Notes under the pieces: generated by a model | The model's input: only the letters and a program-made list of their open reading frames with translations | Databases searched by the model: none | What the model was told of the DNA's origin: nothing | Shown: in pieces, positions 1-64,000 of the stretch | Layout of the letters: every line of letters starts with the position of its first letter | Numbering within the stretch: the stretch's first letter is position 1 | Translations under genes and position numbers: made by a program | Assembly: GCF_963853765.1 (NCBI RefSeq) | Contig: NC_088861.1 | Location: 21,292,281-21,356,280, forward strand | Direction of reading: 5' to 3' | Length of the DNA: 64,000 nucleotides | Source of the DNA: Magallana gigas | Taxonomy: Eukaryota

Positions 1-2780
1 TAGGAATATATAGAGAAAATCTGTAAACTTTCTTCTCAAAAACAATGACGCCAGGAAAGCTCAAATTCAAATGGAAGCATCCTCAGGTAATGTAGATTTT
101 AGTTTGTTCAAATCATGGTCCCCGGGGGAAGGGTTGGGCCACAGTAGGGGGATCAAGTTTTACATAGGAATATATAGAGAAAATCTTTAAACTTTCTTCT
201 CAAAAACTATGACGCCAGGAAAGCTCAAATTAAAATGGAAGCATCCTCAGGTAGTGTAGATTTTAGTTTGTTCAAATCATGGTCCCCGGGGGTAGGGTAG
301 GGCCACAGTAGGGGGATCAAGTTTTACATAGAAATATATAGAGAAAATCTTTAGACTTTCTTCTAAAAAACTATGACGACAGGAAAGCTCAAATTAAAAT
401 GGAAGCATCCTCAGGTAGGGTAGATTTTAGTTTGTTCAAATCATGGTCCCCGGGGGGTAGATTTGGGCCACAGTAGGGGGATCAAGTTTTACTTAGGAAT
501 ATATAGAGAAAATCTTTAAACATTCATCAAAAAAACTATGACGCCAGGAAAGCTCAAATTAAAATGGAAGCATCCTCAGGTAGTGTAGATTTTCGTTTGT
601 TCAAATCATGGTCCCCAGGGGTAGGGTAGGGCCACAGTAGGGGGATCAAGTTTTACATAGGAATATATAGAGAAAATCTGTCAACTTTCTTCTGAAAATC
701 TATGACGCCAGTAAAGCTCAAATTAAAATGGAAGCATCCTCAGGTAGTATAGATTTTAGTTTGTTCAAATCATGGTCCCCGGGGGTAGAGTTGGGCCACA
801 GTAGGGGGATCAAGTTTTACTTAGGAATATATACAGAAAATCTTTAAACTTTCTTCTCAAAAACTATGACGCCAGGAAAGCTCAAATTAAAATGGAAGCA
901 TCCTCAGGTAGTGTAGATTTTAGTTTGTTCAAATCATGGTCCCCGGGGGTAGGGTAGGGCCACAGTAGGGGGATCAAGTTTTACATAGGAATATAAAGAG
1001 AAAATCTGTAAACTTTCTTCTCAAAAACTATGACGCCAGGAAAGCTCAAATTCAAATGGAAGCATCCTCAGGAAGTGAATATTCTTGTTTGTTCAAATCA
1101 TGGTCCCCGGATGTAGGGTAGGGCCACAGTAGGGGGATCAAGTTTTACATAGGAGTATAGAGAGAAAATCTTTAAACTTTCTTCTCAAAAACTATGACGC
1201 CAGGAAAGCTCAAATTAAAATGGAAGAATCCTCAGGTAGTGTAGATTTTAGTTTGTTCAAATCATGGTCCCCGGGGGTAGGGTAGGGCCACAGTAGGGGG
1301 ATCAAGTTTTACATAGGAATATAAAGAGAAAATCTGTAAACTTTCTTCTCAAAAACTATGACGCCAGGAAAGCTCAAATTCAAATGGAAGCATCCTCAGG
1401 AAGTGAATATTCTTGTTTGTTCAAATCATGGTCCCCGGATGTAGGGTAGGGCCACAGGAGGGGGATCAAGTTTTACATAGGAGTATAGAGAGAAAATCTT
1501 TAAACTTTCTTCTCAAAAACTATGACGCCAGGAAAGCTCAAATTAAAATGGAAGCATCCTCAGGTAGTGTAGATTTTAGTTTGTTCAAATCATGGTCCCC
1601 GGAGGTAGGGTTGGGCCACAGTAGGGGGATCAAGTTTTACATAGGAATATATAGAGAAAATCTGTAAACTTTCTTCTCAAAAACTATGACGCCAGGAAAG
1701 CTCAAATTAAAATGGAAGCATCCTCAGGAAGTGAATATTCTTGTTTATTCAAATCATGGCCCCCGGATGTAGGGTAGGGCAACAGTAGGGGGATCAAGTT
1801 TTACGTAGGAAAATATATAGAGAAAATCTGTAAACTTTCTTCTCAAAAACTATGACGCCAGGAAAGCTCAAATTAAAATGGAAGCATCCTCAGGTAGTGT
1901 AGATTTAAGTTTGTTCAAATCGTGGTCGTCGGGGGTAGGGTTGGGCAACAGTAGGGGGATCAACTTTTATTTAGGAATATATAGAGAAAATCTGTAAACT
2001 TTCTTCTCAAAAACTATGACGCCAGGAAAGCTCAAATTCAAATGGAAGCATCCTCAGGAAGTGAATATTCTTGTTTGTTCAAATTAAGGTCCCCCGGGGT
2101 AGGGTTGGGCCACAGTAGGGGGATCAAGTTTTACATAGGAGTATATAGAGAAAATCTTTAAACTTTCTTCTCAAAAACTATGACGCCAGGAAAGCTCAAA
2201 TTAAAATGGAAGTATCCTCTGGTAGTGTAGATTTTAGTTTGTTCAAATCATGGTCCCCGGGGGTAGGGTTGGGCCACAGTAGGGGGATCAAGTTTTACAT
2301 AGGAATATATAGAGAACATTTTTAAACTTTCTTCTCAAAAACTATGACGCCAGGAAAGCTCAAATTAAAATAGAAGCATCCTCAGGAAGTGAATATTCTT
2401 GTATGTTCAAATCATGGTCCCCGGGGGTAGGGTTGGGCCACAGTAGGGGGATCAAGTTTTACATAGGAATATATAGAGAAAATCTTTAAACTTTCTTCCC
2501 AAAAACTATGACGCCAGGAAAGCTCAAAATAAAACGGAAGCATCCTCAGAAAATGAATATTCTTGTTTGTTCAAATCATGGTCCCCGGGGGAAGGGATGG
2601 GCCACAGTAGGGGGATCAAGTTTTACATAGGAGTATATAGAGAAAATCTTTAAACTTTCTTCTCAAAAACTATGACACCAAAAAAGCCCAAATTAAAATG
2701 GAAGCATCCTCTGGTAGTGTAGATTTTAGTTTGTTCAAATCATGGTCCCCGGGGCTAGGGTTGGGCCACAGTAGGGGGAT
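1..2780. repeat. Block duplicated at 14810-17590 (offset ~14.81 kb); the duplication extends upstream of the window
   Basis: 1-70 matches 14811-14880. The 84 aa marker ORF at 1413 matches the one at 16220. cgtggtcgtc variant monomers sit at ~1921 and ~16731. GAACATTTTTAAAC ... GTATGTTC landmarks sit at ~2290-2400 and ~17110-17211. The match ends at about 2780/17590. Confidence 0.75.
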
Positions 2781-5700
2781 CAAGTTTTACATAGGAATAT
2801 ATAAAGAAAATTTTTAAACTTTCTTCTCAAAAACTATGACGCCAGGAAAGCTCAAATTAAAATGGAAGAATCCTCAGGTAGTGTAGATTTTAGTTTGTTC
2901 AAATCCTGGTCCCCGGAGGTAGGGTTGGGCCACAGTAGGGGGATAAAGTTTTACATAGGAATATATAGAGAAAATCTGTAAACTTTCTTCTCAAAAACTA
3001 TGACGCCAGGAAAGCTCAAATTAAAATGGAAGCATCCTGAGGAAGTGAATATTCCTGTTTGTTCAAATCATGGTCCCCGGATGTAGGGTAGGGCCACAGT
3101 AGGGGGATCACCTTTTACATAGGAATATATAGAGAAAATCTTTAAATTTTCTTCTCAAAAACTATGACGCCAGGAAAGCTCAAATTAAAATGGAAGCATC
3201 CTCAGGAAGTAAATATTCTTGTTTGCTCAAATCATGGTCCCAGGATGTAGGGTAGGGCTACAGTAGGGGGATCAAGTTTTAAATAGGAATATATAGAGAA
3301 AATCTGTAAACTTTCTTCTCAAAAACTATGACGCCAGGAAAGCTCAAATCAAAATGGAAGCATCCTCAGGTAGTGTAGATTTTAGTTGGTTCAAATCATG
3401 GTCCCCGGGGGTAAGTTTGGGCCACAGTAGGGGGATCAACTTTTACATAGAAATATATAGAGAAAATCTGTAAACTTTCTTCTCAAAAACAATGACGTCA
3501 GGAAAGCTCAAATTCAAATGGAAGCATCCTCAGGAAGTGAATATTCTTGTTTGTTCAAATTATGGTCCCCGGGGGTAGGGTTGGGCCACAGTAGGGGGAT
3601 CAAGTTTTACTTAGGAGTATAAAGAGAAAATCTTTAAACTTTCTTCTCAAAAACTATGACGCCAGGAAAGCTCAAATTAAAATCGAAGTATCCTCTGGTA
3701 GTGTAGATTTTAGTTTGTTCAAATCATGGTCCCCGGGGGTAGGGTTGGGCAACAGTAGGGGGATCACCTTTTACATAGGAATATATAGAGAAAATCTTTA
3801 AATTTTCTTCTCAACAACTATGACGCCAGGAAGGCTCAAATTAAAATGAAAGTATCCCCAGGAAGTGAATATTCTTCTTTGTTCAAATCATGGTCCCAGG
3901 ATGTAGGGTAGGGCAACAGTAGGGGGATAAAGTTTTAAATAGGAATATAAAGAGAAAATCTGTAAACTTTCTTCTCAAAAACTACGACGCCTGGAAAGCT
4001 CAAATTAAAATGAAAGCATCTTCAGGTAGTGTAAATTTTAGTTTGTTCAAATCATGGTCCCCGGGGGTAGGGTTGGGCCACAGTATGGGGATCAAGTTTT
4101 ACGTAGGAATATATAGAGAATATCTCTAAACTTTCTTCTCAAAAACTATGACGCCAGGAAAGCTCAAATTAAAATGGAAGCATCCTCAGGAAGTGAATAT
4201 TCCTGTTTGTTCAAATCATGGTCCCCGGATGTACGGTAGGGCCACAGTAGGGGGATCAAGTTTGTAATTGGAATATATAGTGAAAATCTTTAAACTTTCT
4301 TCTAAAAAACAATGACGTCAGGAAAGCTCAAATTCAAATGGAAGCATCCTCAGGAAGTGAATATTCTTGTTTGTTCAAAGCATGGCACCCGGATGTAGGG
4401 TAGGGCCACAGTAGGGGGATCAAGTTTTACGTAGGAATATATATAGAGAAAATCTGTAAACTTTCTTCTCAAAAACTATGACTCCAGGAAAGCTCAAATT
4501 AAAATGGAAGCATCCTCAGGTAGTGTAGATTTAAGTTTGTTCAAATCGTGGTCGTCGGGGGTAGGGTTGGGCAACAGTAGGGGGATCAACTTTTATTTAG
4601 GAATATATAGAGAAAATCTGTAAACTTTCTTCTCAAAAACTATGACGCCAGGAAAGCTCAAATTCAAATGGAAGCATCCTCAGGAAGTGAATATTCTTGT
4701 TTGTTCAAATTAAGGTCCCCCGGGGTAGGGTTGGGCCACAGTAGGGGGATCAAGTTTTACATAGGAGTATATAGAGAAAATCTTTAAACTTTCTTCTCAA
4801 AAACTATGACGCCAGGAAAGCTCAAATTAAAATGGAAGTATCCTCTGGTAGTGTAGATATTAGTTTGTTCAAATCATTGTCCCCGGGGGTAGGGTTGGGC
4901 CACAGTAGGGGGATCAAGTTTTACATAGGAGTATAGAGAGAAAATCTTTAAACTTTCTAATCAAAAACTATGACGCCAGGAAAGCTCAAATTAAAATGGA
5001 AGAATCCTCAGGTAGTGTAGATTTTAGTTTGTTCAAATCCTGGTCCCCGGAGGTAGGGTTGGGCCACAGTAGGGGGATAAAGTTTTACATAGGAATATAT
5101 AGAGAAAATCTGTAAACTTTCTTCTCAAAAACTATGACGCCAGGAAAGCTCAAATTAAAATGGAAGCATCCTGAGGAAGTGAATATTCCTGTTTGTTCAA
5201 ATCATGGTCCCCGGATGTAGGGTAGGGCCACAGTAGGGGGATCAAGTTTGTAATTGGAATATATAGTGAAAATCTGTAAACTTTCTTCTCAAAAACTATG
5301 ACGCCAGGAAAGCTCAAATTAAAATGGAAGCATCCTCAGGAAGTGAATGTTCTTGTTTGTTTAAATCATGGTCCCCGGGGGTAGGGTTGGGGCACAGTAG
5401 GGGGATCAAGTTTTACATAGGAGTATATAGAGAAAATCTTTAAATTTTCTTCTCAAAAATTATGACGCCAGGAAAGCTCAAATTAAAATGGAAGTATCCT
5501 CTGGTAGAGTAGATTTTAGTTTCTTCAAATCATGGTCCCCGGGGGTAGGGTTTGGCAACAGTAGGGGGATCACCTTTTACATAGGAATATATAGAGAAAA
5601 TCTGTAAACTTTCTTCTCAAAAACTATGACGCCAGGAAAGCTCAAATTAAAATGGAGGTATCCTCTGGTAGTGTAGATTTTATTTTATTCAAATCCTGGT

Positions 5701-6003
5701 CCCCGGAGGTAGGGTTGGGCCACAGTAGGGGGATAAAGTTTTACTTAGGAATATATAGAGAAAATCTGTAAACTTTCTTCTCAAAAACTATGACGCCAGG
5801 AAAGCTCAAATTAAAATGGAAGCATCCTCAGGAAGTGAATATTCCTGTTTGTTCAAATCATGGTCCCCGGATGTAGGGTAGGGCCACAGTAGGGGGATCA
5901 AGTTTGTAATTGGAATATATAGTGAAAATCTTTAAACTTTCTTCTCAAAAACTATGACGCCAGGAAAGCTCAAATTAAAATGGAAGCATCCTCAGGAAGT
6001 GAA

Positions 6004-6063
6004 CGATATCGGCAGTCTTACTCTCACAGTATCCTGAATCACGGCCTAAAAAAATTGGGTGAA
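6004..6063. other. Non-satellite ~60 bp segment replacing ~43 bp of a monomer (CGATATCGGCAGTCTTACTCTCACAGTATCCTGAATCACGGCCTAAAAAAATTGGGTGAAT); candidate mobile-element or filler-DNA remnant
   Basis: The segment has no similarity to any part of the monomer consensus. It is flanked on both sides by normal monomer sequence (…CTCAGGAAGTGAA | insert | AGGGCCACAGTAGGGGG…). It contains an EcoRV site and a short A-run. Confidence 0.7.
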
Positions 6064-9000
6064 TAGGGCCACAGTAGGGGGATTAAGTTTTAAATAGGAA
6101 TATAAAGAGAAAATCTGTAAACTTTCTTCTCAAAAACTATGACGCCAGGAAAGCTCAAATTAAAATGAAAGCATCTTCAGGTAGTGTAAATTTTAGTTTG
6201 TTTAAATCATGGTCCCCGGAGGTAGGGTTGGGCCACAGTAGGGGGATCAAGTTTTACGTAGGAATATAAAGAGAAAATCTTTAAACTTTCTTCTCAAAAA
6301 CTATGACGCCAGGAAAGCTCAAATTAAAATGGAAGAATCCTCAGGTAGTGTAGATTTTAGTTTGTTCAAATCATGGTCCCCGGAGGTAGGGTTGGGCCAC
6401 AGTAGGGGGATAAAGTTTTACATAGGAATATATAGAGAAAATCTGTAAACTTTCTTCTCAAAAACTATGACGCCAGGAAAGCTCAAATTAAAATGGAAGC
6501 ATCCTCAGGAAGTGAATATTCTTGTTTGTTCAAATCATGGCCCCCGGATGTAGGGTAGGGCAACAGTAGGGGGATCAAGTTTTACGTAGGAATATATATA
6601 GAGAAAATCTGTAAACTTTCTTCTCAAAAACTATGACGCCAGGAAAGCTCAAATTAAAATGGAAGCATCCTCAGGTAGTGTAGATTTAAGTTTGTTCAAA
6701 TCGTGGTCGTCGGGGGTAGGGTTGGGCAACAGTAGGGGGATCAACTTTTATTTAGGAATATATAGAGAAAATCTGTAAACTTTCTTCTCAAAAACTATGA
6801 CGCCAGGAAAGCTCAAATTCAAATGGAAGCATCCTCAGGAAGTGAATATTCTTGTTTGTTCAAATTAAGGTCCCCCGGGGTAGGGTTGGGCCACAGTAGG
6901 GGGATCAAGTTTTACATAGGAGTATATAGAGAAAATCTTTAAACTTTCTTCTCAAAAACTATGACGCCAGGAAAGCTCAAATTAAAATGGAAGTATCCTC
7001 TGGTAGTGTAGATTTTAGTTTGTTCAAATCATGGTCCCCGGGGGTAGGGTTGGGCCACAGTAGGGGGATCAAGTTTTACATAGGAATATATAGAGAACAT
7101 TTTTAAACTTTCTTCTCAAAAACTATGACGCCAGGAAAGCTCAAATTAAAATAGAAGCATCCTCAGGTAGTGAATATTCTTGTTTGTTCAAATCATGGTC
7201 CCCGGGGGTAGGGTTGGGCCACAGTAGGGGGATCAAGTTTTATTTAGAAATATATAGAGAAAATCTTTAAACTTTCTTCCCAAAAACTATGACCCCAGGA
7301 AAGCTCAAATTAAAATGGAAGAATCCTCAGGTAGTGTAGATTTTAGTTTGTTCAAATCATGGTCCCCGGAGGTAGGGTTGGGCCACAGTAGGGGGATAAA
7401 GTTTTACATAGGAATATATAGAGAAAATCTGTAAACTTTCTTCTCAAAAACTATGACGCCAGGAAAGCTCAAATTAAAATGGAAGCATCCTCAGGAAGTG
7501 AATATTCTTGTTTGTTCAAATCATGGCCCCCGGATGTAGGGTAGGGCAACAGTAGGGGGATCAAGTTTTACGTAGGAATATATATAGAGAAAATCTGTAA
7601 ACTTTCTTCTCAAAAACTATGACGCCAGGAAAGCTCAAATTAAAATGGAAGCATCCTCAGGTAGTGTAGATTTAAGTTTGTTCAAATCGTGGTCGTCGGG
7701 GGTAGGGTTGGGCAACAGTAGGGGGATCAACTTTTATTTAGGAATATATAGAGAAAATCTGTAAACTTTCTTCTCAAAAACTATGACGCCAGGAAAGCTC
7801 AAATTCAAATGGAAGCATCCTCAGGAAGTGAATATTCTTGTTTGTTCAAATTAAGGTCCCCCGGGGTAGGTTTGGGCCACAGTAGGGGGATCAAGTTTTA
7901 CATAGGAGTATATAGAGAAAATCTTTAAACTTTCTTCTCAAAAACTATGACGCCAGGAAAGCTCAAATTAAAATGGAAGTATCCTCTGGTAGTGTAGATA
8001 TTAGTTTGTTCAAATCATGGTCCCCGGGGGTAGGGTTGGGCCACAGTAGGGGGATCAAGTTTTACATAGGAATATATAGAGAACATTTTTAAACTTTCTT
8101 CACAAAAACTATGACGCCAGGAAAGCTCAAATTAAAATAGAAGCATCCTCAGGTAGTGAATATTCTTGTTTGTTCAAATCATGGTCCCCGGGGGTAGGGT
8201 AGGGCCACAGTAGGGGGATCAAGTTTTATTTAGGAATATATAGAGAAAATCTTTAAACTTTCTTCCCAAAAACTATGACGCCAGGAAAGCTTAAAATAAA
8301 ACGGAAGCATCCTCAGAAAATGAATATTCTTGTTTGTTCAAATCATGGTCCCCGGGGGAAGGGATGGGCCACAGTAGGGGGATCAAGTTTTACATAGGAA
8401 TATATAGAGAAAATCTGTAAACTTTCTTCTCAAAAACTATGACGCCAGGAAAGCTCAAATTAAAATGGAAGCATCCTCAGGAACTGAATATTCTTGTTTG
8501 TTCAAATTATGGTCCCTGGGGGTAGGGTTGGGCCACAGTAGGGGGATCAAGTTTTACATAGGAGTATATAGAGAAAATCTTTAAACTTTCTTCTCAAAAA
8601 CTATGACACCAGAAAAGCCCAAATTAAAATGGAAGCATCCTCTGGTAGTGTAGATTTTAGTTTGTTCAAATCATGGTCCCCGGGGGTAGGGTTGGGCCAC
8701 AGTAGGGGGATCAAGTTTTAAATAGGAATATAGAGAAAATTTTTAAACTTTCTTCTCAAAAATTATGACGCCAGGAAAGCTCAAAATAAAATGGAAGCAT
8801 CCTCAGAAAGTGAATATTCTTGTTTGTTCAGATCATGGTCCCCGGGGGTAGAGATGGGCCACAGTAGAGGGGTCAACTTTTACATAGGAATATATAGAGA
8901 AATCTGTAAACTTTCTTCTCAAAAACTATGACGCCAGGAAAGCTCAAATTAAAATGGAAGCATCCTCAGGAACTGAATATTCTTGTTCGTTCAAATTATG

Positions 9001-11767
9001 GTCCCCGGGGGTAGGGTTGGGCCACAGTAGGGGGATCAAGTTTTACATAGGAGTATATAGAGAAAATCTTTAAACTTTCTTCTCAAAAACTATGACACCA
9101 AAAAAGCCCAAATTAAAATGGAAGCATCCTCTGGTAGTGTAGATTTTAGTTTTTTCAAATCATGGTCCCCGGGGCTAGGGTTGGGCCACAGTAGGGGGAT
9201 CAAGTTTTACATAGGAATATATAGAGAACATTTTTAAACTTTCTTCTCAAAAACTATGACGCCAGGAAAGCTCAAATTAAAATGGAAGCATCCTCAGGAA
9301 CTGAATTTTCTTGTTTGTTCAAATCATGGTCCCCGGGGGTAGGGTTGGGCCACAGTAGGGGGATCAAGTTTTACATAGGAATATATAGAGAAAATCTTTA
9401 AACTTTCTTTTCAAAAACAATGACGCCAGTAAAGCTCAAATTAAAATGGAAGCATTCTCAGAAAGTGAATATTCTTGTTTGTTCAAATTATGGTCCCCGG
9501 GGGCAGGGTTGGGCCACAGTAGGGGGATCAAGTTTTACATAGGAATATATAGAGAAAATCTTTGAACTTTCTTCCCAAAGACTATGACGCAAGGAAAGCT
9601 CAAATTAAAATGGAAGTATCCTCTGGTAGTGTAGATTTTTGTTTGTTCAAATCATGGTCCCCGGGGGTAGGGTTGGGCCACAGTAGGGGGATCAAGTTTT
9701 ACATAGGAATATATAGAGAAAATCTTTAAACTTTCTTCTCAAAAACTATGACGCCAGGAAAGCTCAAATTAAAATGGAAGCATCCTCAGGTAGTGTAGAT
9801 TTAAGTTTGTTCAAATCATGGTCCCCGGGGGTAGGTTTGGGCCACAGTAGGGGGATGAAGTTTTACATAGGAATATATAGAGAAAATCTGTAAACTTTCT
9901 TCTCAAAAACAATGACGCCAGGAAAGCTCAAATTCAAATGGAAGCATCCTCAGGTAATGTAGATTTTAGTTTGTTCAAATCATGGTCCCCGGGGGAAGGG
10001 TTGGGCCACAGTAGGGGGATCAAGTTTTACATAGGAATATATAGAGAAAATCTTTAAACTTTCTTCTCAAAAACAATGACGTCAGGAAAGCTCAAATTCA
10101 AATGGAAGCATCCTCAGGAAGTGAATATTCTTGTTTGTTCAAATCATGGCACCCGGATGTAGGGTAGGGCCACAGTAGGGGGATCAAGTTTTACGTAGGA
10201 ATATATATAGAGAAAATCTGTAAACTTTCTTCTCAAAAACTATGACGCCAGGAAAGCTCAAATTAAAATCGAAGCATCCTCAGGTAGTGTAGATTTAAGT
10301 TTGTTCAAATCGTGGTCGTCGGGGGTAGGGTTGGGCAACAGTAGGGGGATCAACTTTTATTTAGGAATATATAGAGAAAATCTGTAAACTTTCTTCTCAA
10401 AAACTATGACGCCAGGAAAGCTCAAATTCAAATGGAAGCATCCTCAGGAAGTGAATATTCTTGTTTGTTCAAATTAAGGTCCCCCGGGGTAGGGTTGGGC
10501 CACAGTAGGGGGATCAAGTTTTACATAGGAGTATATAGAGAAAATCTTTAAACTTTCTTCTCAAAAACTATGACGCCAGGAAAGCTCAAATTAAAATGGA
10601 AGTATCCTCTGGTAGTGTAGATATTAGTTTGTTCAAATCATTGTCCCCGGGGGTAGGGTTGGGCCACAGTAGGGGGATCAAGTTTTACATAGGAGTATAG
10701 AGAGAAAATCTTTAAACTTTCTAATCAAAAACTATGACGCCAGGAAAGCTCAAATTAAAATGGAAGAATCCTCAGGTAGTGTAGATTTTAGTTTGTTCAA
10801 ATCCTGGTCCCCGGAGGTAGGGTTGGGCCACAGTATGGGGATAAAGTTTTACATAGGAATATATAGAGAAAATCTGTAAACTTTCTTCTCAAAAACTATG
10901 ACGCCAGGAAAGCTCAAATTAAAATGGAAGCATCCTGAGGAAGTGAATATTCCTGTTTGTTCAAATCATGGTCCCCGGATGTAGGGTATGGCCACAGTAG
11001 GGGGATCAAGTTTGTAATTGGAATATATAGTGAAAATCTGTAAACTTTCTTCTCAAAAACTATGACGCCAGGAAAGCTCAAATTAAAATGGAAGCATCCT
11101 CAGGAAGTGAATGTTCTTGTTTGTTTAAATCATGGTCCCCGGGGGCAGGGTTGGGGCACAGTAGGGGGATCAAGTTTTACATAGGAGTATATAGAGAAAA
11201 TCTTTAAATTTTCTTCTCAAAAATTATGACGCCAGGAAAGCTCAAATTAAAATGGAAGTATCCTCTGGTAGAGTAGATTTTAGTTTCTTCAAATCATGGT
11301 CCCCGGGGGTAGGGTTTGGCAACAGTAGGGGGATCACCTTTTACATAGGAATATATAGAGAAAATCTTTAAACTTTCTTCTCAAAAACTATGACGCCAGG
11401 AAAGCTCAAATTAAAATGGAGGTATCCTCTGGTAGTGTAGATTTTATTTTATTCAAATCCTGGTCCCCGGAGGTAGGGTTGGGCCACAGTAGGGGGATAA
11501 AGTTTTACTTAGGAATATATAGAGAAAATCTGTAAACTTTCTTCTCAAAAACTATGACGCCAGGAAAGCTCAAATTAAAATGGAAGCATCCTCAGGAAGT
11601 GAATATTCCTGTTTGTTCAAATCATGGTCCCCGGATGTAGGGTAGGGCCACAGTAGGGGGATCAAGTTTGTAATTGGAATATATAGTGAAAATCTTTAAA
11701 CTTTCTTCTCAAAAACTATGACGCCAGGAAAGCTCAAATTAAAATGGAAGCATCCTCAGGAAGTGAA

Positions 11768-11827
11768 CGATATCGGCAGTCTTACTCTCACAGTATCCTG
11801 AATCACGGCCTAAAAAATTGGGTGAAT
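11768..11827. other. Second copy of the non-satellite ~60 bp segment, copied as part of the 5.77 kb HOR; it differs from the first copy only by one fewer A in the A-run
   Basis: It is identical in sequence and monomer context to 6004-6063 and lies 5764 bp downstream. Confidence 0.7.
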
Positions 11828-45530: not shown

Positions 45531-46023
45531 AAAATGGAAGCATCCTCAGGTAGTGTAGATTTTAGTTTGTTCAAATCATGGTCCCCGGGGGTAGGGTAGG
45601 GCCACAGTAGGGGGATCAAGTTTTACATAGAAATATATAGAGAAAATCTTTAGACTTTCTTCTAAAAAACTATGACGACAGGAAAACTCAAATTAAAATG
45701 GAAGCATCCTCAGGTAGGGTAGATTTTAGTTTGTTCAAATCATGGTCCCCGGGGGTAGATTTGGGCCACAGTAGGGGGATCAAGTTTTACTTAGGAATAT
45801 ATAGAGGAAATCTTTAAACATTCATCAAAAAAACTATGACGCCTGGAAAGCTCAAATTAAAATGGAAGCATCCTCAGGTAGTGTAGATTTTAGTTTGTTC
45901 AAATTATGGTCCCTGGATGTAGGGTAGGGCCACAGTATGGGGTTCAAGATTTACTTAGAGATATAGAGAAAATCTTTAAACTTTCTTCTCAAACACTATG
46001 ACGCCAGGAAAGCTCAAATTAAA
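44911..46023. repeat. Local 1113 bp tandem reduplication with a chimeric junction monomer at about 45530-45600
   Basis: Marker pair B1/A occurs at 44911/45399 and again at 46024/46512. The 45399 ORF is a truncated chimera (A-type start, B-type end). After ~45560 the sequence returns to the TTAGACTTTC monomer that is also found at ~44521. Confidence 0.65.
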
Positions 46024-51684: not shown

Positions 51685-54600
51685 ATGGAAGCATCCTCAG
51701 GTAGTGTAGATTTTAGTTTGTTCAAATCATGGTCCCCAGGGGTAGGGTTGGGCCACAGTAGGGGGATCAAGTTTTACTTAGGAATATATAGAGAAAATCT
51801 TTATACATTCTTCGATAAAACTATGACGCCAGGAAAGCTCAAATTAAAATGGAAGCATCCTCAGGTAGTGTAGATTTTAGTTTGCACAGTAGGGGGATCA
51901 AGTTTTACATAGGAATATATAGAGAAAATCTGTAAACTTTCTTCTCAAAAACTATGACGCCAGGAAAGCTCAAATTAAAATGGAAGCATCCTCAGGTAGT
52001 GTAGATTTTAGTTTGTTCAAATCATGGTCCCCGGGGGTAGGGTAGGGCCACAGTAGGGGGATCAAGTTTTACATAGGAATATATAGAGAAAATCTGTAAA
52101 CTTTCTTCTCAAAAACTATGACGCCAGGAAAGCTCAAATTCAAATGGAAGCATCCTCAGGAAGTGAATATTCTTGTTTGTTCAAATCATGGTCCCCGGAT
52201 GTAGGGTAGGGCCACAGGAGGGGGATCAAGTTTTACATAGGAGTATAGAGAGAAAATCTTTAAACTTTCTTCTCAAAAACTATGACGCCAGGAAAGCTCA
52301 AATTAAAATGGAAGAATCCTCAGGTAGTGTAGATTTTAGTTTGTTCAAATCATGGTCCCCGGAGGTAGGGTTGGGCCACAGTAGGGGGATCAAGTTTTAC
52401 ATAGGAATATATAGAGAAAATCTGTAAACTTTCTTCTCAAAAACTATGACGCCAGGAAAGCTCAAATTAAAATGGAAGCATCCTCAGGAAGTGAATATTC
52501 TTGTTTATTCAAATCATGGCCCCCGGATGTAGGGTAGGGCAACAGTAGGGGGATCAAGTTTTACGTAGGAATATATATAGAGAAAATCTGTAAACTTTCT
52601 TCTCAAAAACTATGACGCCAGGAAAGCTCAAATTAAAATGGAAGCATCCTCAGGTAGTGTAGATTTAAGTTTGTTCAAATCGTGGTCGTCGGGGGTAGGG
52701 TTGGGCAACAGTAGGGGGATCAACTTTTATTTAGGAATATATAGAGAAAATCTGTAAACTTTCTTCTCAAAAACTATGACGCCAGGAAAGCTCAAATTCA
52801 AATGGAAGCATCCTCAGGAAGTGAATATTCTTGTTTGTTCAAATTAAGGTCCCCCGGGGTAGGGTTGGGCCACAGTAGGGGGATCAAGTTTTACATAGGA
52901 GTATATAGAGAAAATCTTTAAACTTTCTTCTCAAAAACTATGACGCCAGGAAAGCTCAAATTAAAATGGAAGTATCCTCTGGTAGTGTAGATTTTAGTTT
53001 GTTCAAATCATGGTCCCCGGGGGTAGGGTTGGGCCACAGTAGGGGGATCAAGTTTTACATAGCAATATATAGAGAACATTTTTAAACTTTCTTCTCAAAA
53101 ACTATGACGCCAGGAAAGCTCAAATTAAAATAGAAGCATCCTCAGGAAGTGAATATTCTTGTATGTTCAAATCATGGTCCCCGGGGGTAGGGTTGGGCCA
53201 CAGTAGGGGGATCAAGTTTTACATAGGAATATATAGAGAAAATCTTTAAACTTTCTTCCCAAAAACTATGACGCCAGGAAAGCTCAAAATAAAACGGAAG
53301 CATCCTCAGAAAATGAATATTCTTGTTTGTTCAAATCATGGTCCCCGGGGGAAGGGATGGGCCACAGTAGGGGGATCAAGTTTTACATAGGAGTATATAG
53401 AGAAAATCTTTAAACTTTCTTCTCAAAAACTATGACACCAAAAAAGCCCAAATTAAAATGGAAGCATCCTCTGGTAGTGTAGATTTTAGTTTGTTCAAAT
53501 CATGGTCCCCGGGGCTAGGGTTGGGCCACAGTAGGGGGATCAAGTTTTACATAGGAATATATAGAGAAAATTTTTAAACTTTCTTCTCAAAAACTATGAC
53601 GCCAGGAAAGCTCAAATTAAAATGGAAGCATCCTCAGGAACTGAATATTCTTGTTTGTTCAAATCATGGTCCCCGGGGGTAGGGTTGGGCCACAGTAGGG
53701 GGATCAAGTTTTACATAGGAATATATAGAGAAAATCTTTAAACTTTCTTTTCAAAAACAATGACGCCAGTAAAGCTCAAATTAAAATGGAAGCATTCTCA
53801 GAAAGTGAATATTCTTGTTTGTTCAAATTATGGTCCCCGGGGGTAGGGTTGGGCCACAGTAGGGGGATCAAGTTTTACATAGGAATATATAGAGAAAATC
53901 TTTGAACTTTCTTCCCAAAGACTATGACGCAAGGAAAGCTCAAATTAAAATGGAAGTATCCTCTGGTAGTGTAGATTTTTGTTTGTTCAAATCATGGTCC
54001 CCGGGGGTAGGGTTGGGCCACAGTAGGGGGATCAAGTTTTACATAGGAATATATAGAGAAAATCTTTAAACTTTCTTCTCAAAAACTATGACGCCAGGAA
54101 AGCTCAAATTAAAATAGAAGCATCCTCAGGTAGTGTAGATTTAAGTTTGTTTAAATCATGGTCCCCGGGGGTAGGTTTGGGCCACAGTAGGGGGATGAAG
54201 TTTTACATAGGAATATATAGAGAAAATCTGTAAACTTTCTTCTCAAAAACAATGACGCCAGGAAAGCTCAAATTCAATTGGAAGCATCCTCAGGTAATGT
54301 ACATTTTAGTTTGTTCAAATCATGGTCCCCGGGGGAAGGGTTGGGCCACAGTAGGGGGATCAAGTTTTACATAGGAATATATAGAGAAAATCTTTAAACT
54401 TTCTTCTCAAAAACTATGACGCCAGGAAAGCTCAAATTAAAATGGAAGCATCCTCAGGTAGTGTAGATTTTAGTTTGTTCAAATCATGGTCCCCGGGGGT
54501 AGGGTTGGGCCACAGTAGGGGGATCAAGTTTTACATAGAAATATATAGAGAAAATCTTTAGACTTTCTTCTAAAAAACTATGACGACAGGAAAACTCAAA

Positions 54601-57345
54601 TTAAAATGGAAGCATCCTCAGGTAGGGTAGATTTTAGTTTGTTCAAATCATGGTCCCCGGGGGTAGATTTGGGCCACAGTAGGGGGATCAAGTTTTACTT
54701 AGGAATATATAGAGAAAATCTTTAAACATTCATCAAAAAAACTATGACGCCAGGAAAGCTCAAATTAAAATGGAAGCATCCTCAGGTAGTGTAGATTTTA
54801 GTTTGTTCAAATTATGGTCCCTGGATGTAGGGTAGGGCCACAGTATGGGGTTCAAGATTTACTTAGAGATATAGAGAAAATCTTTAAACTTTCTTCTCAA
54901 ACACTATGACGCCAGGAAAGCTCAAATTAAAATGGAAGCATCCTCAGGTAGTGTAGATTTTAGTTTGTTCAAATCATGGTCCCCAGGGGTAGGGTTGGGC
55001 CACAGTAGGGGGATCAAGTTTTACTTAGGAATATATAGAGAAAATCTTTATACATTCTTCGATAAAACTATGACGCCAGGAAAGCTCAAATTAAAATGGA
55101 AGCATCCTCAGGTAGTGTAGATTTTAGTTTGCACAGTAGGGGGATCAAGGAATATATAGAGAAAATCTGTAAACTTTCTTCTCAAAAACTATGACGCCAG
55201 GAAAGCTCAAATTAAAATGGAAGCATCCTCAGGTAGTGTAGGTTTTAATTTGTTCAAATCATGGTCCCTGGGGGTAGGGTTGGGCCACAGTAGAGGGATC
55301 AAGTTTTTCATAGGAATATATAGAGAAAATCTTTCAACTTTCTTCTCAAAAACTATGGCGCCAGGAAAGCTCAAATTAAAATGGAAGCATCCTCAGGTAG
55401 AGTAGATTTTAGTTTGTTCAAATCATGGTCCCCGGGGGTAGGTTTGGGCCACAGTAGGGGGTTCAACTTTTACATAGGAATATATAGAGAAAATCTTTAA
55501 ACTTTCTTCTCAAAAACTATGACGCCAGGAAAGCTCAAATTAAAATGGAAGCATCCTCAGGTAGTGTAAATTTTAGTTTGTTCAAATCATGGTCCCCGGG
55601 GGTAGGGTTGGGCAACAGTAGGGGGATCAAGTTTTACATAAGAATATATAGAGAAAATCTGTAAACTTTCTTTTCAAAAACTATGACGCCAGGAAAGCTC
55701 AAATTAAAATGGAAGCATTCTCAGAAAGTGAATATTCTTGTTTGTTCAAATCATGGTCCCCGGGGGTAGGGTTGGGCCACAGTAGGGGGATCAAGTTTTA
55801 CATAGGAATATATAGAGAAAATCTGTCAACTTTCTTCTCAAAAACTATGACGCCAGGAAAACTCAAATTAAAATGGAAGTATCCTCTGGTAGTATAGATT
55901 TTAGTTTGTTCAAATCATGGTCCCCGGGGGTAGAGTTGGGCCACAGTAGGGGGATCAAGTTTTACTTAGGAATATATACAGAAAATCTTTAAACTTTCTT
56001 CTCAAAAACTATGACGCCAGGAAAGCTCAAATTAAAATGGAAGCATCCTCAGGTAGTGTAGATTTTAGTTTGTTCAAATCATGGTCCCCGGGGCTAGGGT
56101 TGGGCCACAGTAGGGGGATCAAGTTTTACATAGGAATATATAGAGAAAATCTGTAAACTTTCTTCTCAAAAACTATGACGCCAGGAAAGCTCAAATTAAA
56201 ATGGAAGCATCCTCAGGAAGTGAATATTCTTGTTTGTTCAAATCATGGTCCCCGGATGTAGGGTAGGGCCACAGGAGGGGGATCAAGTTTTACTTAACAA
56301 TATATACAGAAAATCTTTAAACATTCTTCTCAAAAACTATGACGCCAAGAAAGCTCAAATTCAAATGGAAGCATCCTCAGGTAGAGTAGATTTAGTTTGT
56401 TCAAATCATGGTCCCCGGGGGTAGGGTTGGGCCACAGTAGGGGGATCAAGTTTTACATAGGAATATATAGAGAAAATCTTTAAACTTTCTTCTCAAAAAC
56501 TATGACGCCAGGAAAGCTCAAATTAAAATAGAAGCATCCTCAGGTAGTGTAGATTTAAGTTTGTTCAAATCATGGTCCCCGGGGGTAGGTTTTGGCCACA
56601 GTAGGGGGATGAAGTTTTACATAGGAATATATAGAGAAAATCTGTAAACTTTCTTCTCAAAAACAATGACGCCAGGAAAGCTCAAATTCAAATGGAAGCA
56701 TCCTCAGGTAATGTAGATTTTAGTTTGTTCAAATCATGGTCCCCGGGGGAAGGGTTGGGCCACAGTAGGGGGATCAAGTTTTACATAGGAATATATAGAG
56801 AAAATCTTTAAACTTTCTTCTCAAAAACTATGACGCCAGGAAAGCTCAAATTAAAATGGAAGCATCCTCAGGTAGTGTAGATTTTAGTTTGTTCAAATCA
56901 TGGTCCCCGGGGGTAGGGTAGGGCCACAGTAGGGGGATCAAGTTTTACATAGAAATATATAGAGAAAATCTTTAGACTTTCTTCTAAAAAACTATGACGA
57001 CAGGAAAACTCAAATTAAAATGGAAGCATCCTCAGGTAGGGTAGATTTTAGTTTGTTCAAATCATGGTCCCCGGGGGTAGATTTGGGCCACAGTAGGGGG
57101 ATCAAGTTTTACTTAGGAATATATAGAGGAAATCTTTAAACATTCATCAAAAAAACTATGACGCCTGGAAAGCTCAAATTAAAATGGAAGCATCCTCAGG
57201 TAGTGTAGATTTTAGTTTGTTCAAATTATGGTCCCTGGATGTAGGGTAGGGCCACAGTATGGGGTTCAAGATTTACTTAGAGATATAGAGAAAATCTTTA
57301 AACTTTCTTCTCAAACACTATGACGCCAGGAAAGCTCAAATTAAA
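51685..57345. repeat. 5661 bp HOR copy 2
   Basis: Same marker order at the same offsets as copy 1; near-identical sequence. Confidence 0.8.
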
Positions 57346-60300
57346 ATGGAAGCATCCTCAGGTAGTGTAGATTTTAGTTTGTTCAAATCATGGTCCCCAG
57401 GGGTAGGGTTGGGCCACAGTAGGGGGATCAAGTTTTACTTAGGAATATATAGAGAAAATCTTTATACATTCTTCGATAAAACTATGACGCCAGGAAAGCT
57501 CAAATTAAAATGGAAGCATCCTCAGGTAGTGTAGATTTTAGTTTGCACAGTAGGGGGATCAAGTTTTACATAGGAATATATAGAGAAAATCTGTAAACTT
57601 TCTTCTCAAAAACTATGACGCCAGGAAAGCTCAAATTAAAATGGAAGCATCCTCAGGTAGTGTAGATTTTAGTTTGTTCAAATCATGGTCCCCGGGGGTA
57701 GGGTAGGGCCACAGTAGGGGGATCAAGTTTTACATAGGAATATATAGAGAAAATCTGTAAACTTTCTTCTCAAAAACTATGACGCCAGGAAAGCTCAAAT
57801 TCAAATGGAAGCATCCTCAGGAAGTGAATATTCTTGTTTGTTCAAATCATGGTCCCCGGATGTAGGGTAGGGCCACAGGAGGGGGATCAAGTTTTACATA
57901 GGAGTATAGAGAGAAAATCTTTAAACTTTCTTCTCAAAAACTATGACGCCAGGAAAGCTCAAATTAAAATGGAAGAATCCTCAGGTAGTGTAGATTTTAG
58001 TTTGTTCAAATCATGGTCCCCGGAGGTAGGGTTGGGCCACAGTAGGGGGATCAAGTTTTACATAGGAATATATAGAGAAAATCTGTAAACTTTCTTCTCA
58101 AAAACTATGACGCCAGGAAAGCTCAAATTAAAATGGAAGCATCCTCAGGAAGTGAATATTCTTGTTTATTCAAATCATGGCCCCCGGATGTAGGGTAGGG
58201 CAACAGTAGGGGGATCAAGTTTTACGTAGGAATATATATAGAGAAAATCTGTAAACTTTCTTCTCAAAAACTATGACGCCAGGAAAGCTCAAATTAAAAT
58301 GGAAGCATCCTCAGGTAGTGTAGATTTAAGTTTGTTCAAATCGTGGTCGTCGGGGGTAGGGTTGGGCAACAGTAGGGGGATCAACTTTTATTTAGGAATA
58401 TATAGAGAAAATCTGTAAACTTTCTTCTCAAAAACTATGACGCCAGGAAAGCTCAAATTCAAATGGAAGCATCCTCAGGAAGTGAATATTCTTGTTTGTT
58501 CAAATTAAGGTCCCCCGGGGTAGGGTTGGGCCACAGTAGGGGGATCAAGTTTTACATAGGAGTATATAGAGAAAATCTTTAAACTTTCTTCTCAAAAACT
58601 ATGACGCCAGGAAAGCTCAAATTAAAATGGAAGTATCCTCTGGTAGTGTAGATTTTAGTTTGTTCAAATCATGGTCCCCGGGGGTAGGGTTGGGCCACAG
58701 TAGGGGGATCAAGTTTTACATAGCAATATATAGAGAACATTTTTAAACTTTCTTCTCAAAAACTATGACGCCAGGAAAGCTCAAATTAAAATAGAAGCAT
58801 CCTCAGGAAGTGAATATTCTTGTATGTTCAAATCATGGTCCCCGGGGGTAGGGTTGGGCCACAGTAGGGGGATCAAGTTTTACATAGGAATATATAGAGA
58901 AAATCTTTAAACTTTCTTCCCAAAAACTATGACGCCAGGAAAGCTCAAAATAAAACGGAAGCATCCTCAGAAAATGAATATTCTTGTTTGTTCAAATCAT
59001 GGTCCCCGGGGGAAGGGATGGGCCACAGTAGGGGGATCAAGTTTTACATAGGAGTATATAGAGAAAATCTTTAAACTTTCTTCTCAAAAACTATGACACC
59101 AAAAAAGCCCAAATTAAAATGGAAGCATCCTCTGGTAGTGTAGATTTTAGTTTGTTCAAATCATGGTCCCCGGGGCTAGGGTTGGGCCACAGTAGGGGGA
59201 TCAAGTTTTACATAGGAATATATAGAGAAAATTTTTAAACTTTCTTCTCAAAAACTATGACGCCAGGAAAGCTCAAATTAAAATGGAAGCATCCTCAGGA
59301 ACTGAATATTCTTGTTTGTTCAAATCATGGTCCCCGGGGGTAGGGTTGGGCCACAGTAGGGGGATCAAGTTTTACATAGGAATATATAGAGAAAATCTTT
59401 AAACTTTCTTTTCAAAAACAATGACGCCAGTAAAGCTCAAATTAAAATGGAAGCATTCTCAGAAAGTGAATATTCTTGTTTGTTCAAATTATGGTCCCCG
59501 GGGGTAGGGTTGGGCCACAGTAGGGGGATCAAGTTTTACATAGGAATATATAGAGAAAATCTTTGAACTTTCTTCCCAAAGACTATGACGCAAGGAAAGC
59601 TCAAATTAAAATGGAAGTATCCTCTGGTAGTGTAGATTTTTGTTTGTTCAAATCATGGTCCCCGGGGGTAGGGTTGGGCCACAGTAGGGGGATCAAGTTT
59701 TACATAGGAATATATAGAGAAAATCTTTAAACTTTCTTCTCAAAAACTATGACGCCAGGAAAGCTCAAATTAAAATAGAAGCATCCTCAGGTAGTGTAGA
59801 TTTAAGTTTGTTTAAATCATGGTCCCCGGGGGTAGGTTTGGGCCACAGTAGGGGGATGAAGTTTTACATAGGAATATATAGAGAAAATCTGTAAACTTTC
59901 TTCTCAAAAACAATGACGCCAGGAAAGCTCAAATTCAATTGGAAGCATCCTCAGGTAATGTACATTTTAGTTTGTTCAAATCATGGTCCCCGGGGGAAGG
60001 GTTGGGCCACAGTAGGGGGATCAAGTTTTACATAGGAATATATAGAGAAAATCTTTAAACTTTCTTCTCAAAAACTATGACGCCAGGAAAGCTCAAATTA
60101 AAATGGAAGCATCCTCAGGTAGTGTAGATTTTAGTTTGTTCAAATCATGGTCCCCGGGGGTAGGGTTGGGCCACAGTAGGGGGATCAAGTTTTACATAGA
60201 AATATATAGAGAAAATCTTTAGACTTTCTTCTAAAAAACTATGACGACAGGAAAACTCAAATTAAAATGGAAGCATCCTCAGGTAGGGTAGATTTTAGTT

Positions 60301-62095
60301 TGTTCAAATCATGGTCCCCGGGGGTAGATTTGGGCCACAGTAGGGGGATCAAGTTTTACTTAGGAATATATAGAGAAAATCTTTAAACATTCATCAAAAA
60401 AACTATGACGCCAGGAAAGCTCAAATTAAAATGGAAGCATCCTCAGGTAGTGTAGATTTTAGTTTGTTCAAATTATGGTCCCTGGATGTAGGGTAGGGCC
60501 ACAGTATGGGGTTCAAGATTTACTTAGAGATATAGAGAAAATCTTTAAACTTTCTTCTCAAACACTATGACGCCAGGAAAGCTCAAATTAAAATGGAAGC
60601 ATCCTCAGGTAGTGTAGATTTTAGTTTGTTCAAATCATGGTCCCCAGGGGTAGGGTTGGGCCACAGTAGGGGGATCAAGTTTTACTTAGGAATATATAGA
60701 GAAAATCTTTATACATTCTTCGATAAAACTATGACGCCAGGAAAGCTCAAATTAAAATGGAAGCATCCTCAGGTAGTGTAGATTTTAGTTTGCACAGTAG
60801 GGGGATCAAGGAATATATAGAGAAAATCTGTAAACTTTCTTCTCAAAAACTATGACGCCAGGAAAGCTCAAATTAAAATGGAAGCATCCTCAGGTAGTGT
60901 AGGTTTTAATTTGTTCAAATCATGGTCCCTGGGGGTAGGGTTGGGCCACAGTAGAGGGATCAAGTTTTTCATAGGAATATATAGAGAAAATCTTTCAACT
61001 TTCTTCTCAAAAACTATGGCGCCAGGAAAGCTCAAATTAAAATGGAAGCATCCTCAGGTAGAGTAGATTTTAGTTTGTTCAAATCATGGTCCCCGGGGGT
61101 AGGTTTGGGCCACAGTAGGGGGTTCAACTTTTACATAGGAATATATAGAGAAAATCTTTAAACTTTCTTCTCAAAAACTATGACGCCAGGAAAGCTCAAA
61201 TTAAAATGGAAGCATCCTCAGGTAGTGTAAATTTTAGTTTGTTCAAATCATGGTCCCCGGGGGTAGGGTTGGGCCACAGTAGGGGGATCAAGTTTTACAT
61301 AAGAATATATAGAGAAAATCTGTAAACTTTCTTTTCAAAAACTATGACGCCAGGAAAGCTCAAATTAAAATGGAAGCATTCTCAGAAAGTGAATATTCTT
61401 GTTTGTTCAAATCATGGTCCCCGGGGGTAGGGTTGGGCCACAGTAGGGGGATCAAGTTTTACATAGGAATATATAGAGAAAATCTGTCAACTTTCTTCTC
61501 AAAAACTATGACGCCAGGAAAACTCAAATTAAAATGGAAGTATCCTCTGGTAGTATAGATTTTAGTTTGTTCAAATCATGGTCCCCGGGGGTAGAGTTGG
61601 GCCACAGTAGGGGGATCAAGTTTTACTTAGGAATATATACAGAAAATCTTTAAACTTTCTTCTCAAAAACTATGACGCCAGGAAAGCTCAAATTAAAATG
61701 GAAGCATCCTCAGGTAGTGTAGATTTTAGTTTGTTCAAATCATGGTCCCCGGGGCTAGGGTTGGGCCACAGTAGGGGGATCAAGTTTTACATAGGAATAT
61801 ATAGAGAAAATCTGTAAACTTTCTTCTCAAAAACTATGACGCCAGGAAAGCTCAAATTAAAATGGAAGCATCCTCAGGAAGTGAATATTCTTGTTTGTTC
61901 AAATCATGGTCCCCGGATGTAGGGTAGGGCCACAGGAGGGGGATCAAGTTTTACTTAGCAATATATACAGAAAATCTTTAAACATTCTTCTCAAAAACTA
62001 TGACGCCAAGAAAGCTCAAATTCAAATGGAAGCATCCTCAGGTAGAGTAGATTTAGTTTGTTCAAATCATGGTCCCCGGGGGTAGGGTTGGGCCA
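57346..62095. repeat. 5661 bp HOR copy 3, canonical up to ~62095 and then replaced by a 985 bp HOR
   Basis: Markers sit at canonical offsets through E (61891). At ~62095 the sequence GGGGGTTCAACTTTTACAT replaces the canonical GGGGGATCAAGTTTTACAT and the register jumps back about 985 bp. Confidence 0.7.
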
Positions 62096-64000
62096 CAGTA
62101 GGGGGTTCAACTTTTACATAGGAATATATAGAGAAAATCTTTAAACTTTCTTCTCAAAAACTATGGCACCAGGAAAGCTCAAATTAAAATGGAAGCATCC
62201 TCAGGTAGAGTAGATTTTAGTTTGTTCAAATCATGGTCCCCGGGGGGTAGGGTTGGGCTGCAGTAGGGGTATCAAGTATTACATAGGAATATATAGAGAA
62301 AATCTGTAAACTTTCTCTTCATAAACTATGACGCCAGGAAAGCTCAAATTAAAATGAATGCATTCTCAGAAAGTGAATATTCTTGTTTGTTCAAATTATG
62401 GTCCCCGGGGGTAGGGTTGGGCCACAGTAGGGGGGTCAAGTTTTACATAGGAATATATAGAGAAAATCTGTCAGCTTTCTTCTCAAAAACTATGACGCCA
62501 GGAAAGCTCAAATTAAAATGGAAGTATCCTCTGGTAGTATAGATTTTAGTTTGTTCAAATCATGGTCCCCGGGGGTAGAGTTGGGCCACAGTAGGGGGAT
62601 CAAGTTTTACTTAGGAATATATACAGAAAATCTTTAAACTTTCTTCTCAAAAACTATGACGCCAGGAAAGCTCAAATTAAAATGGAAGCATCCTCAGGTA
62701 GTGTAGATTTTAGTCTGTTCAAATCATGGTCCCCGGGGGTAGGGTAGGGCCACAGTAGGGGGATCAAGTTTTACATAGGAATATATAGAGAAAATCTGTA
62801 AACTTTCTTCTCAAAAACTATGACGCCAGGAAAGCTCAAATTAAAATTGAAGCATCCTCAGGAAGTGAATATTCTTGTTTGTTCAAATCATGGTCCCCGG
62901 ATGTAGGGTAGGGCCACAGGAGGGGGATCAAGTTTTACTTAGGAATATATACAGAAAATCTTTAAACATTCTTCTCAAAAACTATGACGCCAAGAAAGCT
63001 CAAATTAAAATGGAAGCATCCTCAGGTAGAGTAGATTTAGTTTGTTCAAATCATGGTCCCCGGGGGTAGGGTTGGGCCACAGTAGGGGATTCAACTTTTA
63101 CATAGGAAAATATAGAGAAAATCTTTAAACTTTCTTCTCAAAAACTATGACGCCAGGAAAGCTCAAATTAAAATGGAAGCATCCTCAGGTAGTGTAGATT
63201 TCAGTTTGTTCAAATCATGGTCCCCGGGGGTAGGGTTGGGCTGCAGTAGGGGGATCAAGTATTACATAGGAATATATAGAGAAAATCTGTAAACTTTCTT
63301 TTCAAAAACTATGACGCCAGGAAAGCTCAAATTAAAATGAATGCATTCTCAGAAAGTGAATATTCTTGTTTGTTCAAATTATGGTCCCCGGGGGTAGGGT
63401 TGGGCCACAGTAGGGGGATCAAGTTTAACATAGGAATATATAGAGAAAATCTGTAAACTTTCTTCTCAAACACTATGACGCCAGGAAAGCTCAAATTAAA
63501 ATGAAAGCATCCTCAGGAAGTGAATATTCTTCTTTGTTCAAATCATGGTCCCCGGATGTAGGGTAGGGCCACAGTAGGGGGATCAAGTTTTACTTAGGAA
63601 TAAATAGAGAAAATCTGTAAACTTTCTTCTCGAAAACAATGACGCCAGGAAAGCTCAAATTAAAATGGAAGCATCCTCAGGTAGTGTAGATTTTAGTTTG
63701 TTCAAATCGTGGTCCCCAGGGGTAGGGTAGGGCCACAGTAGGGGGATCAAGTTTTACATAGAAATATATACAGAAAATCTTTAAACTTTCTTCTCAAAAA
63801 CTATGACGCCAGGAAAGCTCAAATTAAAATGGAAGCATCCTCAGGTAGTGTAGATTTTAGTTTGTTCAAATCATGGTCCCCGGGGGTAGGGTAGGGCCAC
63901 AGTAGGGGGATCAAGTTTTATATAGGAATATATAGAGAACATCTTTCAACTTTTTTCTCAAAAACTATGACGCCAGGAAAGCTCAAATTAAAATGGAAGC
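61110..64000. repeat. Short HOR: ~985 bp (6-monomer) unit in about 2.9 tandem copies at the 3' end of the window
   Basis: Marker ORFs at 61370/62354 and 61891/62875 are 984 bp apart. The variant ATGAATGCATTCTCAGAAAGTGAATATTC recurs at ~62354 and ~63340. GGGG(G/A)TTCAACTTTTACAT recurs at ~61110, ~62100 and ~63085. Confidence 0.7.

Follow-up and report, generated by a model that had tools for sequence, protein, structure and literature searches.

Does a 64,000-nucleotide stretch that consists of one tandem repeat from end to end represent a centromere, and, if so, of which satellite is it built and how did it become so long? These questions are raised by positions 21,292,281 to 21,356,280 (forward strand) of contig NC_088861.1, a stretch that is called the window throughout this text. 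We found that the window very probably belongs to a long array, stand-alone in form, of the Cg170/HindIII satellite DNA (satDNA) known from the Pacific oyster, Crassostrea (Magallana) gigas, more precisely of its 164-bp subfamily CgiSat01a. All 64,000 bases form a single head-to-tail array oriented on one strand, which continues beyond both window ends. Thus, Tandem Repeats Finder (TRF) returned a period of 164 over the whole window with 90–92% matches, about 0% indels, and scores of up to 30,595, its rows being interrupted only at shorter units. A blastn comparison of the consensus with the window gave 404 high-scoring segment pairs, all on the plus strand, and left 492 nt unaligned, and a wrap-around dynamic-programming alignment to the cyclic consensus aligned 63,916 of the 64,000 bases, with 84 bases inserted and 614 deleted. 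Segmentation then yielded 394 units representing 135 distinct sequences, with lengths of 164 bp (324 units), 162–166 bp (52 units), 131 bp (8 units), 121/122 bp (7 units), and 184/185 bp (2 units); the last unit of the window is partial (78 bp).

These results agree with much of an earlier description made by a model from the letters of this DNA (the sequence-only reading), which had recognized a single satellite array of ~164 bp period, estimated ~390 monomers, pointed out the nucleosome-sized unit, assigned the satellite to an animal or plant genome, and proposed TRF as the check on period and copy number. Its statement that the array is uninterrupted holds for genes and transposons, none of which was found to interrupt the array in the window, and does not strictly hold for its wording "no unique sequence", because two units hold stretches of 61–62 nt that are not satellite.

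The family, which the sequence-only reading had left without a name, was identified by comparison with published consensus sequences. Once reverse-complemented, the CgiSat01a consensus given in Data S1 of PMC8268682 agrees with that of the window at 163 of 164 positions, and the sole mismatch column, 99, is itself polymorphic among the window units (T in 243, C in 131). Without exception, the 394 units scored higher against CgiSat01a (89.6–99.4% identity, mean 94.9%) than they did against CgiSat01b, its sister subfamily of 166 bp (75–83%, mean 78.8%), and units of the CgiSat01b type numbered zero in the window. CgiSat01a has been described as a 164-bp monomer with 59.8% AT that makes up 0.72% of the genome and matches DNA/Helitron in Repbase (PMC8268682); the monomer length, the AT content of about 60% (61% in the window), and the head-to-tail tandem arrangement are the same here, and we noted no difference at the monomer level. 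With CgiSat01b, the classical Cg170 of 166 bp, the window has the blocks GGAAGCATCCTCAGGTAGTGTAGATT, AAATCATG..CCCCGGGGGTAGGGT.GGGCCACA, and TTTTACATAGGAATATATAGAG in common, whereas the two subfamilies are distinguished by a 2-nt indel (166 versus 164 bp) and by a variable segment, which reads CTCAAATTAAAATGG in CgiSat01a and CTGAAACTTGTGTGG in CgiSat01b. The family alignment behind these comparisons took in the window consensus, CgiSat01a, CgiSat01b, and three metagenome loci (L001–L003) described below. As judged from these sequence comparisons, membership in Cg170/CgiSat01a appears highly probable at the least.

The HindIII site AAGCTT, to which the family owes its name, occurs once in the 64 kb, at position 8287, whereas AAGCTC occurs 357 times. 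Since the published CgiSat01a consensus likewise contains AAGCTC, the missing site is no argument against membership in this subfamily; it rather implies that the 164-bp subfamily is not cut by HindIII and would not have come free in the digests with this enzyme through which the family was discovered. Exact 18–25-mers of the consensus gave no match in a full-text search of papers, the published file carrying the opposite strand, and exact-pattern scans with conserved motifs of 38 and 26 nt returned 0 matches from the contigs of metagenomes, prokaryote genomes, and viruses. The hosts of the family have been reported to be confined to Ostreidae, and, of six oyster species compared, only C. gigas and C. 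angulata were reported to have the 164-bp variant, the origin of which was placed by the authors after the split of the Crassostrea branch and before the divergence of C. gigas and C. angulata (PMC11136912); CanSat01a is the C. angulata counterpart of CgiSat01a. The DNA of the window is therefore very probably that of C. gigas or of its sister species C. angulata.

Above the level of the monomer, the array is arranged in higher-order repeats (HORs), as the sequence-only reading had also described. The mean pairwise identity of monomers is 90%, and neighbours (0.900) are no more alike than monomers at lags of 2–12 (0.898–0.905), so that the array is without a local gradient. Set into this even background are nested levels of identity, namely ~90% between monomers, ~99.4% between sub-blocks of ~3 kb, 99.8–99.9% between 5,661-bp units, and 99.97% for the duplication at a lag of 19.8 kb. 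In the regular HOR near the right end of the window (Table 1), monomer identity reaches 99.9% for a lag of 35 monomers and 99.8% for one of 70, as compared with a median of 89.6% at other lags, and only 11 mismatches in 10,801 bp were counted at the 5,661-bp lag; over 10.8–11.3 kb, the identity of HOR and segment copies amounts to 99.90–99.97%. Each 5,661-bp copy contains one 131-bp and one 121-bp truncated unit at spacings of 3,247 and 2,414 bp, and the ~3-kb sub-blocks within the HOR, each closed by such a truncated unit, are those that are ~99.4% alike (lags 3247 and 2909). Further upstream, between 14,251 and 45,652, the dominant lag is 122 monomers, corresponding to 19,776 bp, and the 8.6-kb segment listed in Table 1 belongs to the 35-mer HOR as an earlier stretch detached from it. 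Regularity is lower in the first 14 kb, where a block and its duplicate, with a lag of ~5,764 bp, are 98% identical. A 492-bp period reported by TRF, which would correspond to a 3-mer HOR, was rejected as a level of organization, its match being 89% as against 90% for 164 bp. Amid monomers that differ by 10%, we also observed an exact repeat of 8,097 bp (25970–34066 versus 47517–55613), which is either a very recent duplication or an assembly point to check against long reads.

The truncated units serve as markers within this hierarchy. The 131-bp units lack consensus positions 107–139 (33 bp), including the palindrome CCCCGGGG. The 121-bp units have the same 33-bp deletion and the diagnostic substitutions TTTATACATTCTTCGATAAAAC in common with them and have lost AGTTTTACAT in addition, a deletion of 10 bp that lies between two AG dinucleotides (microhomology); the 121-bp form thus derives from the 131-bp form. 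Altogether 15 truncated units are found from position 19,073 onward, 7–33 and mostly 15–20 monomers apart, with successive spacings that begin with 3083, 3073, 2589, 2414, 3247, and 5370 bp. In the less regular part of the array, a non-satellite patch, ACGATATCGGCAGTCTTACTCTCACAGTATCCTGAATCACGGCCTAAAAAAATTGGGTGAAT, takes the place of consensus positions ~93–133 and destroys the palindrome. Elsewhere in the window, no match to the patch was found beyond its own copy, and the consensus file of the C. gigas satellitome yielded none either; the patch may represent filler DNA or a tract converted from another source.

Table 1 Positions of the array, its repeated segments, and its marker units in the window.
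Feature	Position	Strand	Basis or remark
Satellite array, 394 units of 164-bp CgiSat01a (Cg170/HindIII)	1–64000	+	TRF, blastn, wrap-around alignment, segmentation
Regular HOR, 35 monomers = 5,661 bp, ~3 tandem copies	45426–62217	+	Monomer lag identity, base-level comparison
11.6-kb duplicated segment, copy 1	14251–25876	+	3 mismatches in 11,301 bp (99.97%), exact run of 5,377 bp
11.6-kb duplicated segment, copy 2, 19,776 bp downstream	34027–45652	+	Comparison with copy 1
8.6-kb segment, near-identical to 47195–55842 and 52848–61503	25640–34295	+	2 and 6 mismatches in 8,351 bp
2.9-kb block, repeated at 14808–17690 and 34584–37466	1–2883	+	99.85–99.93% identity
131-bp truncated units (n = 8)	19073 (19073–19203), 25229, 30232, 38849, 45005, 46118, 51779, 57440	+	TRF, blastn, unit comparison
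121-bp truncated units (n = 7)	22156 (22156–22276), 27818, 33479, 41932, 49365, 55026, 60687	+	TRF 121-/285-bp periods, unit comparison
62-nt non-satellite patch in the 185-bp unit 5910–6094	6003–6064	+	blastn, wrap-around alignment, unit comparison
Second copy of the patch, one A shorter, in the 184-bp unit 11674–11857	11767–11827	+	Member of the duplicated block with ~5,764-bp lag

Whether such an array lies at a centromere was considered in the light of what has been published for the family. In fluorescence in situ hybridization (FISH), 4–7 of the 10 chromosome pairs carried strong Cg170 signals at their primary constrictions, and in gonadal nuclei the satellite was seen to co-localise with Cg-CenH3 (PMC7348941). 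The majority of the copies, on the other hand, are scattered in short arrays that lie within Helitron/Helentron elements (PMC7492417, PMC8268682, PMC11136912). Because long arrays are required for strong discrete FISH signals, and the scattered copies form short ones, an array of at least 64 kb would most likely be one of those located at a constriction. From the published FISH at the level of the family, we infer that the location of the present array is probably centromere-associated.

Several points weigh against the picture of a long, stand-alone, centromere-associated oyster array. As for the centromere, Cg170 did not pass the enrichment criteria of CenH3 chromatin immunoprecipitation (ChIP), which asked for ChIP/Input > 1.7 and > 500 hits in both replicates, and C. 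gigas centromeres have been described as heterogeneous and rich in transposable elements (TEs) (PMC7348941). As for the array, the exact runs between copies, of up to 8.1 kb, are possibly artefactual, and both array ends lie beyond the window, which leaves room for Helentron flanks. The assignment to a species, for its part, would depend on one published consensus together with the statement on six oyster species quoted above. The ChIP failure was ascribed by the authors to dilution by dispersed copies (PMC7348941). The term "(peri)centromeric" of the sequence-only reading therefore stands as far as the FISH signals and the co-localisation with CenH3 are concerned, and not as far as the ChIP and the dispersal of most copies are concerned. 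What that reading had named as speaking against it, a match to a dispersed repeat or missing CENP-A enrichment, is found by about half, for the family as a whole.

That the array is itself the functional CenH3 centromere core can be proposed only tentatively. It may then be a recently homogenised HOR satellite domain that was collapsed or left as gaps in earlier assemblies, and its CenH3 signal may have been masked in read-clustering ChIP by thousands of dispersed Helentron-borne copies. Primate alpha satellite offers an analogy, and an analogy only, being alike in its ~170-bp monomer, ~10% monomer divergence, HORs of >99% identity, and nested structural variants; there is no sequence relationship, and CENP-A binding has been demonstrated for the alpha-satellite HORs, whereas Cg170 did not pass the CenH3-ChIP criteria.

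The explanation that competes best with a centromere-associated array is a genuine Cg170 array that lies interstitially, in a chromosome arm, and has no centromere role, being simply a large member of the dispersed population. Such a position would suit a family that is dispersed on all ten chromosomes and shows no consistent enrichment in CenH3 ChIP (PMC7348941), and in C. angulata, heterochromatin has been reported to be intercalary and telomeric as well (PMC10048060), a point that bears on the question only if C. angulata is the source of the DNA. We regard this explanation as rather unlikely, however, because the dispersed copies have been described as arrays so short that FISH mostly misses them, and the strong discrete signals, which require long arrays such as the present one, sit at primary constrictions.

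The near-identical multi-kb copies could, alternatively, be an artefact of assembly, in which a shorter real array was over-expanded or tiled and the HOR hierarchy would be partly unreal. In favour of this explanation are the exact runs of 5–8 kb between copies, the notorious mis-assembly of satellite arrays, and the assembly gap in the longest array known earlier. However, the copies are not identical: substitutions of single bases are scattered over them and are shared according to a nested pattern, as in 46393–50219 at lags of 5661 and 11322, and the block lengths vary by defined structural variants (35-mer versus 38-mer, 131- versus 121-bp units), as in real HOR arrays. Both observations argue against over-expansion, which we therefore consider improbable.

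The reading of the window as a stand-alone array also has to be set against the way in which the family usually occurs. Monomers of the Cg170 type have been shown to make up the tandem repeats at the centre of non-autonomous Helentron/Helitron elements (Cg_HINE, PMC7492417; "pearl"/CvA in C. virginica). Cg_HINE elements usually carry ~1–10 repeats and are scattered over all chromosomes, and stand-alone arrays make up 5–10%, as compared with the TE-incorporated ones, which number 3,661 of 5,333, or ~69%, in C. gigas (PMC11136912). According to the literature, the monomers of the Helentron central repeats (Cg_HINE_1/2/10/13; CvA "pearl") and of the BIV160 bivalve superfamily are homologous to those considered here; Helentron arrays, however, comprise ~1–10 repeats (89 at most) between TE termini, whereas the window has no termini in 64 kb and is HOR-organized. 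A comparison for TE termini (subTIR, microsatellite, 3' palindrome; Box1/Box2) found no non-satellite flank in the window, both ends lying beyond it. It is still less credible that the array represents the hugely expanded central repeats of a single non-autonomous Helentron/Helitron element (Cg_HINE) and is still TE-borne, even though most Cg170 arrays are TE-incorporated, Cg_HINE elements do carry repeats of this type (PMC7492417), and a window without an array end has no flank to display, because neither subTIR, microsatellite, nor other flank sequence occurs within 64 kb, and because 89 monomers is the greatest length reported for a TE-associated array, those of >100 monomers being mostly stand-alone (PMC8268682), as against at least 394 units here, which favours the stand-alone form.

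For the stand-alone array, a course of growth can be traced. According to the literature, the monomer descends from the central repeats of non-autonomous Helentron/Helitron elements (Cg_HINE, "pearl"-type), one array of which would have left its element and expanded by unequal crossing-over or replication-based duplication. The steps of growth can be read from the array itself. First, a block of ~15–20 monomers holding the 131-bp unit with its 33-bp deletion was duplicated, whereupon one copy of the block lost the further 10 bp flanked by microhomology. The pair of blocks then became a unit of 35 monomers (5,661 bp) or 38 monomers (6,156 bp), and this unit, followed by larger segments of up to 19.8 kb, was copied again. 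Such an expansion process has left its mark in the nested levels of identity and in the marker deletions that units have in common, and copies of 99.8–99.97% identity, as compared with ~90% for neighbouring monomers, indicate that the latest duplications are very recent.

Three short contigs of metagenomes in ENA were matched in a protein-space search with an 84-aa open reading frame (ORF) of the window. One of them (L001, 1–542; ERZ27264537, contig k141_607366) contains 3+ units of the same 164-bp satellite with 89–95% identity to the window consensus and presumably stems from the oyster host of a microbiome that was sampled. The other two (L003, 1–537, ERZ27265005; L002, 1–723, ERZ8157676) contain 2–3 units of related repeats of the 166-bp type that end abruptly in non-repeat sequence, and, judged by this arrangement, look like a transposon-borne form of the family, in agreement with the short arrays in transposons known from the literature. 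The flank in L003 is rich in GTCGG/GGTTCGG motifs, which recall the GTCY microsatellite of the left flanks of Cg_HINE.

The monomer itself shows few special features. The palindrome, also reported in the sequence-only reading, is present as CCCCGGGG in 258 of the 394 units, CCCCGGGGG being present in 222, and self-complementarity is confined to the 8-bp core CCCCGGGG. An extended dyad or cruciform at this site was rejected, as longer inverted repeats were absent and the fold was unremarkable; the single-strand fold of the monomer is ordinary (z = −1.13). A decay of CpG at the palindrome, which would have pointed to methylation, was likewise unsupported: of 130 distinct monomers, 113 and 124 have retained CG at the two CpG sites. 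Two linked sub-types of the monomer, GGTAGTGTAGATTTTAG and GGAAGTGAATATTCTTG, account for ~73 and ~57 of the 130 distinct sequences and differ at consensus columns 88, 93, 95, 99, and 101. The published genome-wide consensus resembles a column-wise mix of both sub-types, with the C at column 99 on a GGTAGTGTAGATTTTAG background.

The window is non-coding DNA, the sequence bearing no sign of coding or structured-RNA capacity. Its composition is flat (GC 38–39%, GC skew ~+0.18), and the longest ORF in positions 1–12,000, the region that was checked, is the above one of 84 aa, which is a chance reading frame. ARAGORN found no tRNAs in the window, and no Rfam family was matched, whether the whole 64 kb were scanned at the gathering score or 1.5 kb at E ≤ 1; a satellite bearing a ribozyme, such as a hammerhead, or another structured RNA was rejected on the basis of this result and of the ordinary fold.

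What is new here concerns the array and not the monomer. The family has been known from publications since 1996 (Clabby 1996; López-Flores 2004; Tunjić-Cvitanić 2021, PMC8268682), and the length and HOR organization of the present array are refinements of a known element. The longest array published comprises 232 monomers over ~40 kb with an assembly gap, on LG3 (PMC8268682), as compared with an unbroken succession of at least 394 units in the window, which extends over at least 64 kb, and HORs of Cg170 are not mentioned in PMC8268682 or PMC11136912. In the literature on Cg170/CgiSat01 from 2022 onward, we found only PMC11136912 and an incidental mention in a paper on limpets (PMC11121367), and reviews up to November 2025 treat the oyster satellitome as an extreme case, with short, dispersed satellites tied to Helitron/Helentron elements (PMC12692304, PMC10048060).

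The value of the window at the level of the array thus lies in its at least 394 uninterrupted monomers, its four-level hierarchy of identity, and marker units by which duplication events can be ordered. Moreover, the variants specific to the HORs, namely the junctions of the 131- and 121-bp units, the 62-nt patch, and the two linked sub-types, are possible unique probes or k-mers; candidates for HOR-specific k-mers are GTTTGCACAGTAGG at the truncated-unit junction, the GATCAAGGAATA junction, the patch, and the sub-type GGAAGTGAATATTCTTG. Such variants could show whether CenH3 sits on long arrays specifically, which the published ChIP could not resolve. If the array proved to be a centromere core, the picture of C. 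gigas as a species with a fully dispersed satellitome and TE-built centromeres lacking satellites of their own would need revision, and oysters would provide a clear case of a transposon-derived repeat turned HOR centromere satellite.

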